A DNA stretch of 64,000 bases from a virus, in IMG/VR virus record IMGVR_UViG_3300008119_000006. One strand, given 5' to 3'. This document shows positions 5,732-44,796 of this stretch, piece after piece. Below the pieces are notes generated by a model. It was not told where the DNA came from and did no database searches. It saw nothing but the letters and a program-made list of their open reading frames with translations. The position numbers and the translations under genes were made by a program. Numbering within the stretch: the stretch's first letter is position 1; the number at the start of each line of letters is the position of its first letter.

Positions 5732-6115
5732 ATGGCATATTCAGAAAAAGTATTGGATCACTATGAGAATCCAAGAAATGTAGGTAAGATAGAAATAGAT
5801 GATACCGTAGGTACTGGTATGGTCGGTGCTCCTGCTTGTGGTGATGTGATGAAATTACAAATTAAGGTAATTGATGGTATCATCACAGATGCTAAATTTA
5901 AAACGTATGGTTGTGGTTCTGCTATTGCTAGTAGTTCACTTGTTACCGAATGGGTTAAAGGCAAAACACTTGAACAAGCTGGTCAAATTAAAAACTCCCA
6001 AATTGCTGAAGAGTTGGCTTTACCTCCCGTTAAAATACATTGTTCAATTCTTGCGGAAGATGCGATTAAAGCAGCAATAAAAGATTACGAACTTAAATGT
6101 TCATGTAAGGTATAA
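5732..6115 (+). CDS. iscU: Fe-S cluster scaffold IscU
   Basis: MAYSEKVLDHYENPRNVG, GAPACGD, GCGSAIAS, LPPVKIHC. Confidence 0.95.
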   Translation: MAYSEKVLDHYENPRNVGKIEIDDTVGTGMVGAPACGDVMKLQIKVIDGIITDAKFKTYGCGSAIASSSLVTEWVKGKTLEQAGQIKNSQIAEELALPPVKIHCSILAEDAIKAAIKDYELKCSCKV

Positions 6116-6116
6116 A

Positions 6117-6440
6117 ATGGTTAAAGTAACCGATAATGCATTTAGTAAAATAAAAGATTTGATTGTAGAAGAAAAGAATCCTAATATGGCATTAAGAATG
6201 TCTGTAAAAGGTGGAGGTTGTTCGGGGTTTCAATATGAGTTTAGTTTTGATGAAACCCAAGAAGAAGATGATTTTGTGATTGAAAAAGATGATGTTAAAG
6301 TATTTGTTGATTCTATGTCAGCACAATATTTAATGGAAGCAACATTAGATTATAAAGAAGAAAAATTTAATTCACAATTTGTTATAACAAACCCCGAAGT
6401 TAAAGGTACCTGCGGTTGCGGTTCCTCATTTAACATATAG
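6117..6440 (+). CDS. A-type Fe-S carrier (IscA/ErpA)
   Basis: GGGCSGFQY and C-terminal CGCGSSF. Confidence 0.92.
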   Translation: MVKVTDNAFSKIKDLIVEEKNPNMALRMSVKGGGCSGFQYEFSFDETQEEDDFVIEKDDVKVFVDSMSAQYLMEATLDYKEEKFNSQFVITNPEVKGTCGCGSSFNI

Positions 6441-15972: not shown

Positions 15973-16166
15973 TTATCTTCCTAGTAGGTGTTTATGCACT
16001 TATGAATGATGATGATTACCATAAAGAGTTTGACAAACCACACATAGTCCGTTATAATTGTGATAAGTTAATTGCTGGTTGGCATCCAGATGTTCCACCT
16101 GAAGTGATAAAAAAATGTCGTGACCCAAATGAAAGGACTGTCCGTGTTACAACCTATAAAGACTAA
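15945..16166 (+). CDS. small membrane-anchored protein
   Basis: N-terminal TM, YNC...WHPDVP...C. Confidence 0.55.
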   Translation: METLKFTGMIIFLVGVYALMNDDDYHKEFDKPHIVRYNCDKLIAGWHPDVPPEVIKKCRDPNERTVRVTTYKD

Positions 16167-16410
16167 AATTCTCATTCAATTGGAGAATATGGAAAAAGAA
16201 CAAGTACTAAATTCTGGTATCGTTTTGACTACAAAAGACCAACACGAAGCCCAGCGAGCAAAAGTGCTGGCTGTTGGTCCTGCTGTAGAATACGTTAAAG
16301 TTGGTGATAGTATTATTCCTAATTGGAATGCTGCAGAACCTACAAAATTTGAAAAAGAAGATTACTTCCTTGTTAAAGAGGAAGAAGTCGTAATGATTGT
16401 TGAGGAGTAA
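16144..16410 (+). CDS. groES: co-chaperonin GroES-like
   Basis: LQPIKTKILI, SGIVL, VLAVGP, VKVGD; GTG start after AAGGA. Confidence 0.85.
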   Translation: MLQPIKTKILIQLENMEKEQVLNSGIVLTTKDQHEAQRAKVLAVGPAVEYVKVGDSIIPNWNAAEPTKFEKEDYFLVKEEEVVMIVEE

Positions 16411-26900: not shown

Positions 26901-26986
26901 GGGTAAGCGGTAAAGTTGGAGAGTTACAGCAGACTGTAAATCTGTTGCCTATGGCTGAGTTGGTTCGAATCCATCCTTACCCACCA
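26901..26986 (+). tRNA. tRNA-Tyr(GTA)
   Basis: GGGTAAG/CTTACCC acceptor stem, GCAGA-CTGTAAA-TCTGT anticodon arm, long variable arm, TTCGAAT, encoded CCA. Confidence 0.92.
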
Positions 26987-27414: not shown

Positions 27415-27489
27415 GCACCCATCGTCTAACGGTTAGGACATCGCCCTTTCACGGCGGGAATAAGAGTTCGATTCTCCTTGGGTGTACCA
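27415..27489 (+). tRNA. tRNA-Glu(TTC)
   Basis: GCACCCA/TGGGTGT acceptor, TCGCC-CTTTCAC-GGCGG, TTCGATT, CCA. Confidence 0.92.
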
Positions 27490-42953: not shown

Positions 42954-43387
42954 AAAACATTTTGATTGCATTATTATTGGTTACTTCAACAACAGTATTT
43001 GCACAGAAACAAAAAGAAGGCGTAACATATACTGCAACCATTACCAGAGTTATTGATGGTGATACTGTGGCATTTCAAGCACTATGGTTACCAGATCCAT
43101 TAAAGAAAGAATTATCAATTCGTGTATTTGGTGTGGACACTCCAGAAAAAGGCCATCGTGCGCAATGTCCCTCTGAAAATGAAAGAGGTCAAGCGGCCAC
43201 GGCATTTACCAAAAGCACTATCAATGCAGCCAAAACTCGCCAAGTGGTATTAATGGATTGGGACAAGTATGGTGGTCGTGTCCTAGGTGATGTATTGTTA
43301 GATGGTAAATCGTTGCGTTCCATGTTGATCCAACAAGGATATGCACGGGAATACTATGGTGGAGCTAAGGTCGGTTGGTGCCAATAA
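42950..43387 (+). CDS. thermonuclease (SNase-like), secreted
   Basis: Signal peptide, RVIDGDT, RVFGVDTPE, DKYGGRVLG. Confidence 0.88.
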   Translation: MKNILIALLLVTSTTVFAQKQKEGVTYTATITRVIDGDTVAFQALWLPDPLKKELSIRVFGVDTPEKGHRAQCPSENERGQAATAFTKSTINAAKTRQVVLMDWDKYGGRVLGDVLLDGKSLRSMLIQQGYAREYYGGAKVGWCQ

Positions 43388-43477
43388 AACGGTAATAATG
43401 CCAACGATGGTTGACATCTAAATAGTTTTATGTTACAATAGTTTCTTATTTCGTTAAAATAAGTGGTGGGTCGGAAA

Positions 43478-43609
43478 ATGAAAGTTAAAGAGTTAATTAA
43501 AAATTTATATGAGGCTGAAATTAAGCATGATACGCCATTGATTAAAAAACTATGGTTTAAATTGTTAAAGAAAAGCCTTAAGCATAAACATACCGAAGCG
43601 GTAAAGTAA
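43478..43609 (+). CDS. small basic protein (43 aa)
   Basis: ORF between a TTGACA...TACAAT promoter (43412) and the tmRNA. Confidence 0.45.
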   Translation: MKVKELIKNLYEAEIKHDTPLIKKLWFKLLKKSLKHKHTEAVK

Positions 43610-43900
43610 TTCGTAGAAGTTGTTTGAACGTTGTTGTGGACGTGGGTGCGATTCCCACCACCTCCACCAAAAGTATATTGACGAACCGAGTTATCGGTAG
43701 CAAACACACAATATAGTTGTGGCAATATACTTCTGATGGGGGTGCCTAGATTCGACATGGCAATAATTAGAACAATGGAGAATCGGCAGAGAAGCCGTAA
43801 AAACTATTTAAATTAAACGCAAACGATAATAAGTATGCACTTGCTGCCTGATAGGTAAGCGGAGTTTCGCCAGGTGAACTTAGCAACAGAATCACCTGGA
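43610..43900 (+). ncRNA. ssrA: circularly permuted (two-piece) tmRNA
   Basis: Acceptor piece ...GTGGG-TGCGATT-CCCAC-CACCTCC-ACCA (ends 43669) precedes GGGGGTG..TTCGAC (43738); G3.U70; tag ANDNKYALAA* at 43819-43851. Confidence 0.9.
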
Positions 43901-43966
43901 TAAATAAAACACCAGCAACACACAAACCGCTGGTAATACACATAAACACACACAAGGAGTAACAAT

Positions 43967-44239
43967 ATGACACCCTATGAAATTCGCCTAGAATTATTAA
44001 AGATGGCGCAAGGTTTAGTATCTGATGAGTATTCATACAACAGAAGCGCTAAACTAGAACAATGGCACACACAGGTCGAGGCAGCAAAGATTGCCGGTTT
44101 AGAGTCACCTGATATCCCCGAGTTGCCACCATTCCCCACAGAAACAGACATAGTTAAGAAGGCGGAAGCCCTCAATCTATTCGTTTCTCAAACCCCTCCA
44201 CAACCTGAAGTTAAAATAAAATCGAAATCAAATTCGTAA
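43967..44239 (+). CDS. conserved phage hypothetical protein
   Basis: MTPYEIRLELLKMA...P.E.DI..KA..L..FVS; AAGGAG RBS. Confidence 0.7.
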   Translation: MTPYEIRLELLKMAQGLVSDEYSYNRSAKLEQWHTQVEAAKIAGLESPDIPELPPFPTETDIVKKAEALNLFVSQTPPQPEVKIKSKSNS

Positions 44240-44289
44240 TTGGAGATGTTCGACCTGGTTCGCCAGGTCGGCCTTAACAAGGAGATATA

Positions 44290-44796
44290 ATGTTTCATCA
44301 CATTAAACAAGTGCTGGTCGGAATTTTGGCCGCCTCACTACTAATTTCAATACCTTCTATTTCACAAGAAATTAAGGATAATAATATCAAACAAGAAGTC
44401 AATGAGGACTTCAACAAACAATTAGACTGCTTAGCTAAAAATATTTACTTTGAGGCAGCCGGAGAATCTTACGAAGGCAAACTGGCAGTAGCACAAGTTA
44501 CCATCAATCGTGTTAATGATTCTAGATTTCCATCTACCATTTGTGGTGTGGTATATCAAAGAACATTAGGTACCTGCCAATTTAGTTGGACTTGTTTAAA
44601 GAATTTGGCAGTAAGAAACAAATACGCTTGGGAAGAATCGGAAATAGTAGCACGCAAAGCATTGACAGAACCAATATTACATGATAAAATAGCAAGCACA
44701 AATGCACAATTCTATCATGCAGTATATGTAAATCCTGGTTGGAAAAACCGAGTAGTGGCCAAGATAGGTAACCATGTATTCTATGCAAGAAACTAA
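44290..44796 (+). CDS. SleB/Hydrolase_2 cell wall hydrolase
   Basis: CLAKNIYFEA.GE, NRV, ICGVVYQ, QFSW, IGNHVFY. Confidence 0.88.
   Translation: MFHHIKQVLVGILAASLLISIPSISQEIKDNNIKQEVNEDFNKQLDCLAKNIYFEAAGESYEGKLAVAQVTINRVNDSRFPSTICGVVYQRTLGTCQFSWTCLKNLAVRNKYAWEESEIVARKALTEPILHDKIASTNAQFYHAVYVNPGWKNRVVAKIGNHVFYARN

Follow-up and report, generated by a model that had tools for sequence, protein, structure and literature searches.

The window analyzed here, a 64-kb stretch of viral DNA, carries on its plus strand a tmRNA (ssrA) gene whose parts lie in permuted order. The gene sits in a block that reads PD-(D/E)XK nuclease, small ORF, tmRNA, orf90, cell-wall hydrolase, gp33, gp59, and gp32. Along the strand, the CCA end (43669) comes first, followed by the start of the 5' strand (43738) and then by the start of the tag (43819). 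ARAGORN reports a permuted tmRNA at 43577 to 43942 with the tag ANDNKYALAA. The Rfam model RF04321 (tmRNA_permuted) matches 43609 to 43851 over its full length (model positions 1 to 213) at 115.5 bits against a gathering score of 47 (E = 8e-22), and RF01850 (beta_tmRNA) matches at 85.2 bits against a gathering score of 84. A single-sequence fold of 43609 to 43950 gives z = -5.85, and none of 100 shuffles folds equally well. The detection and fold signals are far beyond chance, and the locus certainly holds a back-to-front (circularly permuted) two-piece tmRNA gene carried by a freshwater T4-like phage.

An earlier note had read the same gene from the bare sequence as a permuted two-piece phage tmRNA and had proposed ARAGORN and covariance models as checks. 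ARAGORN returns the permuted call with the very tag that it named, both Rfam models exceed their cut-offs on the window gene, and the T4-like context and the RNAalifold architecture described below point the same way. Its span of 43610 to 43900 holds at the start and falls short at the end: among relatives, conservation begins at 43608/43609 and runs to approximately 43950, which places the 3' end of the gene beyond 43900 and sets the conserved limits at roughly 43609 to 43950. The ARAGORN 5' end at 43577 was rejected as the gene start, since it extends into an unrelated small ORF.

The acceptor piece (43609 to 43669) is defined by sequence, RF04321, and RNAalifold, and its pairs are kept in all seven distinct clade sequences. 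It opens with the 5' strand of helix P2 (43609 to 43638; RF04321 and RNAalifold), continues with a T-arm of 5 bp, GTGGG/CCCAC, around the 7-nt loop TGCGATT (43642 to 43658; sequence and RNAalifold), and closes with the 3' acceptor strand CACCTCC (43659 to 43665), the discriminator A (43666), and an encoded CCA (43667 to 43669). An intervening segment of 68 nt follows (43670 to 43737), which would be removed at maturation. This spacer is closed by a perfect 10-bp stem formed by AAGTATATTG (43671 to 43680) and CAATATACTT (43723 to 43732) and contains inner hairpins besides. Such a closing stem adjoins the acceptor stem in 42 of 61 distinct viral spacers among the matches listed.

The coding piece starts at 43738 to 43783, as supported by sequence, RF04321, and RNAalifold, with the 5' acceptor strand GGGGGTG (43738 to 43744), a D-loop analogue CCTAGATTCGAC (43745 to 43756), and the 3' strand of helix P2 (43756 to 43783). 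The two acceptor strands form a stem of 7 bp in which G3 (G43740) pairs with T43663, giving the G3:U70 identity element for alanine, and all seven pairs stand in all seven distinct clade sequences. A hairpin with a CGGC/GCCG stem occupies the position of pseudoknot 1 (43784 to 43797; RF04321 and RNAalifold); a search by eye found no second strand for this pseudoknot. The tag frame (43819 to 43854) opens with the resume codon GCA at 43819, runs from GCA to GCC (43819 to 43848) to spell ANDNKYALAA, and ends in the stops TGA TAG (43849 to 43854), the first of which lies inside a hairpin at 43841 to 43862. The tag aligns gap-free, codon for codon, with the 10-codon tag of the beta consensus. Its C-terminal Ala-Leu-Ala-Ala is the kind of end recognized by ClpXP-type proteases. 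The 3' domain (43863 to 43950), delimited by clade conservation and RNAalifold, has two hairpins (43870 to 43877 with 43892 to 43899, and 43911 to 43916 with 43929 to 43934) and a conserved A/C-rich tail that reaches the ribosome-binding site of the next ORF and ends near 43950. The earlier note had described the T-arm with its CCA end, the GGGGGTG strand, the 68-nt stem-closed segment, the alanine acceptor stem with G3:U70, and the tag; each is found in the sequence, and the coordinates that it gave are all correct.

A motif scan of IMG/VR recovered at least 119 loci; of the 119 listed, 84 received a permuted call from ARAGORN, 5 were called as standard tmRNAs, and 30 received no call. Among the matches listed, the gene of the window recurs nearly full length in nine loci at 83.5 to 95.2% nucleotide identity, and the next-best loci are partial matches of at most 79% identity. 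One more locus (L140), the tenth, matches it with 100% identity along 342 nt. Upstream of the RNA the contigs are unrelated in sequence, and the conserved stretch coincides with the extent of the RNA itself, within which the tRNA-like domain is the best-conserved portion. Neighboring proteins in the same loci have drifted much further apart, with 52 to 99% amino acid identity (orf90, 61 to 99%; cell-wall hydrolase, 52 to 59%). Four tags occur in the clade, ANDNKYALAA, ANDNKFALAA, ANDNMYALAA, and ANDKYALAA, the last arising from an in-frame 3-nt deletion that is the sole indel of the tag frame. The frame is kept in every variant, as are A-N-D at the N terminus and A-L-A-A at the C terminus, and no member has lost the resume codon or the stop.

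RNAalifold on the seven distinct clade sequences predicts 90 pairs, 5 of them with compensatory changes, and recovers P2, the T-arm, the acceptor stem, the spacer stem, the hairpin at the pseudoknot 1 position, and the 3' hairpins. The compensatory changes fall in the spacer closing stem, the inner spacer hairpin, the hairpin at the pseudoknot 1 position, and both 3' hairpins. Pair 72:115 of the closing stem changes from G:C to A:U in two of the seven sequences, pair 179:191 at the pseudoknot 1 position appears as C:G (four sequences), U:A (two), and G:C (one), and pairs 292:315 and 334:355 change in the 3' hairpins. The P2 pairs are invariant within the clade, so that support for P2 comes from the Rfam model.

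The clade is an uncultured one, without a full-length match in 50,697 deposited phage records. A blastn search of 43400 to 44100 against these records returned no match at E = 1e-5; at E = 10 it returned 90 records, of which none reached 80% coverage of the gene and the best spanned 16% of it, in the T-arm only. The 26-nt T-arm/acceptor string, sought in 185,579 cellular species representatives, occurs in one contig only, which has the length and range of an IMG/VR viral locus (L021). That contig, which bears a Verrucomicrobiales metagenome-assembled genome (MAG) label, is likely a phage contig. The MAG in question yields four permuted tmRNA matches on four contigs, the one that corresponds to L021 among them, and the bin probably holds several phage contigs.

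We examined the neighborhood of the gene for signs of how it is held in these genomes. A candidate early promoter lies upstream on the plus strand at 43411 to 43439, with a sigma-70-like TTGACA-17-TACAAT arrangement, a TG before the -10 element, and 11 of 12 consensus positions; it is a consensus match only, in a region with 9 such sites versus 8.3 expected from shuffles. No terminator-like site was found downstream of the gene on the plus strand. A match to the wcaG RNA at 43421 to 43477 reached 21.2 bits against a threshold of 42 and was dropped. Between promoter and tmRNA, a small ORF (43478 to 43609, plus strand) encodes a basic product of 43 amino acids that matches no PHROG or Pfam family; the stop codon of this ORF directly adjoins the tmRNA gene at its first base. 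A homologue is present in three loci (L003, L128, and L140), and other relatives have a different small, hydrophobic ORF in its place. The small ORF is a variable cassette and not part of the RNA. In L003 it is flanked by a 22-nt direct repeat (995 to 1016 and 1157 to 1178) that duplicates the first bases of the tmRNA gene, and the 5' border of the gene looks like an insertion point for small gene cassettes.

The tmRNA gene itself is a dispensable accessory cassette. The upstream nuclease has relatives in 378 viral loci, from which the best 80 (77 to 99% identity) were taken. Sixty of these extend at least 2.5 kb downstream, and at least 27 of the 60 carry a permuted tmRNA as found by ARAGORN, by a structure-aware detector, or, on a subset, by Rfam. 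The other 33 show none, a result that is confirmed by Rfam in 6 and rests on ARAGORN and the structure-aware detector in the others. ARAGORN was silent in six loci (L161, L169, L171, L181, L182, and L197) where RF04321 scores 93.6 to 102.9 bits, which makes 27 a lower bound and indicates that counts of phage tmRNAs from ARAGORN alone are underestimates. In L145, L147, and L162, orf90 begins approximately 80 to 90 nt after the SNase gene; in the window this interval measures 580 nt and contains the promoter match, the small ORF, and the tmRNA.

The window belongs to a T4-like myophage. Its T4-like homologues include a gp61-type primase, NrdA/B, gp32, gp59, gp33, gp2, gp4, gp48, gp5, gp25, and gp6, and its accessory genes are those of aquatic phages: 2OG-Fe(II) oxygenases, a tryptophan halogenase, a radical SAM enzyme, a CobS-like ATPase, IscU/IscA, and Cpn10. 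The IscU-like (NifU_N, 175 bits), IscA-like (Fe-S_biosyn, 72 bits), and Cpn10/GroES genes, at 5732 to 6440 and 16120 to 16410, are auxiliary genes that concern the assembly of Fe-S clusters and the folding of proteins. The phage also has two tRNA genes, Tyr(GTA) and Glu(TTC), at 26901 to 26986 and 27415 to 27489. The G+C content is 0.30 to 0.39, and the 64-kb contig of a close relative is estimated to be 38% complete. The nearest isolates by gp32 are cyanomyophages at approximately 58% identity, with Melnitz at 54%, which indicates a separate lineage within the same broad group. No integrase was found among the 131 ORF translations of the window (45 compared with PHROGs and 86 with Pfam), and the gene is thus not an attachment-site remnant.

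Mismatch-free pieces of the locus, 151 to 271 nt in length, occur in RNA-library contigs from two lake studies and one river study, indicating that the phage lives in fresh water. These lake and river libraries contain pieces of the gene and mismatch-free pieces of the adjacent ORF, which document presence and are not proof of transcription. Four RNA runs have no contig over approximately 43686 to 43750, and in two runs contigs stop at 43751/43752; all of these contigs are assemblies, and neither the gap nor the ends weigh for or against processing.

To place the gene among known tmRNA subtypes, we compared the lineage-specific models on the window gene and five relatives. The relatives score 99.4, 97.4, 94.7, 71.6, and 64.9 bits on the beta model (three above and two below the cut-off of 84) and 67.8, 60.0, 76.2, 60.8, and 54.6 bits on the alpha model (RF01849; cut-off 50), the alpha score of each relative being always below its own beta score. 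On the cyano model (RF01851) all five, at 34.2 to 40.5 bits, stay below the cut-off of 70. Typical beta-type viral genes reach 112 to 166 bits on the beta model, and the terminal 9-bp hairpin of that model is deleted in the alignment of the window gene. In a maximum-likelihood tree built on 61 distinct rows and 141 columns of the tRNA-like domain, the seven-row clade of the window (support 99/98) falls outside the core beta clade (20 rows, 100/97). It takes the Mosig side, where other alpha-type genes also lie, at 92/84, a value short of the starred level. A union of the window clade with the core beta clade is not rejected by an AU test (p = 0.29). The lineage of the gene is ambiguous, and its host cannot be read from the permutation subtype; the scores and the tree give no clear answer to the idea in the earlier note that this type carries information on host or ancestry.

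The T-loop departs from the Rfam consensus in having G instead of U at position 55. Among the matches listed, this G is found in 27 of 28 alpha-type genes and 12 of 26 beta-type genes, and it has been reported in the Caulobacter tmRNA (PMC1168896), which means that it is not specific to phages. In the window, position 55 is nucleotide 43647 and its partner in the D-loop analogue is 43748. Across 85 permuted genes (84 loci listed plus the window), we observed a perfect tertiary-type co-variation between the two loops. Genes with the T-loop TGCGATT have NAG before N-(A/T)TCGAC in 58 of 58 instances, and those with TTCGATT have NGG in all 24 that could be scored, 3 more being unparsed. This amounts to a change from G18:U55 to A18:G55, both states of which occur among beta-type genes. 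We found no description of this co-variation in the portions of the literature that we consulted.

Two-piece tmRNAs of phages have been described before, and the window gene thus adds a further example to a known kind. According to Buchholz et al. (2022; PMC9004378), the OM43 phage Melnitz has a two-piece tmRNA immediately before its late-transcription coactivator, and 53 two-piece structures occur in 18,146 phage genomes, 50 of them aquatic. The tmRNA database (PMC11915505) lists 79 phage tmRNAs and describes RF04321 as a merger of the alpha, beta, and cyano models. Like the window, Melnitz (MZ577097, a Methylophilales phage) and Mosig (MT647606, a Pelagibacter phage), of the family Kyanoviridae, represent aquatic T4-like myophages with a permuted ssrA. 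Melnitz and Mosig share with the window the slot itself (PD-(D/E)XK nuclease, small ORF or ORFs, ssrA, gp33, gp59, and gp32), a stem-closed spacer directly after the CCA, G at T-loop position 55 with A in the D-loop analogue, and a tag that ends in ALAA. Patchy presence among relatives is a further likeness, with 17 of 47 Melnitz-like contigs (PMC9004378) compared to at least 27 of 60 loci here.

Several features set the window apart from these marine phages. Sequence similarity does not extend past approximately 36 nt of the T-arm, and the alpha type is clear for Melnitz (106.7 bits) and Mosig (67.6 bits), whereas it is the beta model that gives the window clade its higher scores. The Melnitz tmRNA carries a glutamine riboswitch (52.8 bits) at its 3' end, in contrast to the window, where none was found in 43300 to 44400 at E values up to 10. 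The spacer of the window measures 68 nt, compared to approximately 145 nt in Melnitz; the latter spacer (L121, 6085 to 6261) lies inside a 58-codon open frame that runs into the coding piece. Only the window has orf90 and the cell-wall hydrolase between tmRNA and gp33, its phage is freshwater rather than marine, and its backbone shares 26 to 57% amino acid identity with Melnitz (gp32, 54%; gp4, 57%). Relative to bacterial two-piece tmRNAs (RF04321, and RF01849 for the alpha or Caulobacter type), the window gene has all shared pairs of the tRNA-like domain, the encoded CCA, G3:U70, the resume codon, and the tag, but it is carried by a lytic-type phage and does not fit cleanly into one subtype. 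The one-piece tmRNAs of large phages, such as the cluster C1 mycobacteriophages, are, as far as the available descriptions go, likewise phage-borne rescue RNAs dependent on host SmpB, but they have the standard unpermuted order and belong to soil actinobacteriophages.

One conceivable, if doubtful, origin for the clade is a mosaic that evolved in phages, combining an alpha-like tRNA domain (A18/G55, the state of Mosig, Melnitz, and Caulobacter) with a beta-like 10-codon tag and 3' domain and exchanged in cassette form between T4-like phages of fresh water at a recombination hot spot. Variation in the small ORFs and the duplication of the 5' end of the gene in the 22-nt repeat of L003 could be marks of such a hot spot. 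If this were true, phage tmRNAs would form an evolving pool of their own and would not be copies of the gene of the current host. A hybrid could also suit the SmpB and proteases of several host classes, for example freshwater SAR11 and Methylophilaceae, and so ease host jumps.

We place a probability of about three in four on the window gene being a functional two-piece tmRNA encoded by the phage. By analogy with characterized systems, it would very likely serve ordinary phage-borne trans-translation that relies on host factors. Transcription would be early, probably from the promoter at 43411 to 43439, on a longer message shared with the small ORF and the downstream genes; the sigma-70-like site and the lack of a plus-strand terminator suggest this arrangement, and early transcription within a longer message has likewise been proposed for Melnitz. 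As in the Caulobacter two-piece tmRNA (cited in PMC9004378 and PMC11915505), host RNase P may cut the 5' end at G43738, and other host nucleases may free the CCA end at 43669 and remove the stem-closed 68-nt spacer. Cleavage into two pieces is obligatory, since a CCA end inside a transcript cannot be charged. The pieces would be held together by the 7-bp acceptor stem and by the helix P2 of approximately 20 bp.

Once processed, the RNA would presumably be charged by host alanyl-tRNA synthetase via G3:U70 and delivered by host SmpB and EF-Tu, as in bacteria, to ribosomes stalled on broken or stop-less mRNAs. Translation would resume at GCA (43819) and add ANDNKYALAA, the Ala-Leu-Ala-Ala end of which would target the product to host proteases. 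A search of the window ORFs (45 compared with PHROGs and 86 with Pfam) found no SmpB, so the RNA must rely on host SmpB, and its function depends on that protein accepting it. The likely benefit to the phage is more free ribosomes and recycled amino acids, which could matter in a small, ribosome-poor host while host nucleic acids are being degraded. Counted against a functional tmRNA are the lack of an SmpB gene in the window, the presence of the gene in only part of the loci, the marginal lineage-specific scores, the T-loop that is off consensus, the missing second pseudoknot strand, and promoter matches that are not enriched.

It is clearly less probable that a working tmRNA serves a mainly selective end, either by replacing or out-competing host tmRNA after a defense nuclease has attacked host tmRNA or tRNAs, or by directing host nascent proteins to tagging and destruction early in infection. 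This proposal, which is stated as a hypothesis in PMC9004378, takes in both the idea in the earlier note of protection against RNase toxins, which is a guess, and the amino acid recycling idea of that paper. It accords with the candidate early promoter directly upstream, with an accessory distribution (at least 27 of 60 related loci) typical of genes of conditional benefit, and with a tag that retains a degradation-type C terminus. However, the sequence offers nothing to separate it from general rescue, and no toxin, antitoxin, or defense-related gene adjoins the locus; a comparison of 45 ORFs with PHROGs and 86 with Pfam found no toxin-antitoxin family.

A decoy or inhibitor, in which the tRNA-like domain soaks up host SmpB or alanyl-tRNA synthetase or distracts nucleases that target tRNAs and tagging is irrelevant, is very improbable. 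Such a role has been reported for a tag-less tmRNA-like RNA of mycobacteriophage DS6A (PMC11915505), and both the superior conservation of the tRNA-like domain and the unusual co-varying pair of T-loop and D-loop would suit it. However, every clade member retains an intact and constrained tag frame, resume codon, and stop, the sole indel is in frame, and the 3' domain is also conserved, with compensatory changes. Least probable of all is a passenger or relic, namely, a host gene acquired recently, or a fragment of an attachment site, that does nothing for the phage: the gene is absent from about half of the related loci and ssrA fragments are known in temperate phages (PMC9004378), but this gene is complete and shows compensatory changes, the 64 kb encodes no integrase among its 131 ORF translations, the RNA is 83 to 100% identical across contigs whose flanking genes have diverged, and the T-arm/acceptor 26-mer is absent from the 185,579 cellular representatives save for the one contig that is also an IMG/VR viral locus.

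A functional phage tmRNA that depends on its host, the reading preferred here, bears on a question already asked in the literature, namely, what leads phages of streamlined bacteria to carry a tmRNA and from which organism its SmpB comes. For annotation, the window clade indicates that host and ancestry are poorly predicted by subtype models alone. To the marine cases already in print (Melnitz, pelagimyophages, and cyanophages) the finding adds an abundant, uncultured freshwater lineage of T4-like phages, in which the ssrA slot before gp33, gp59, and gp32 is an exchange point where the gene is gained and lost.
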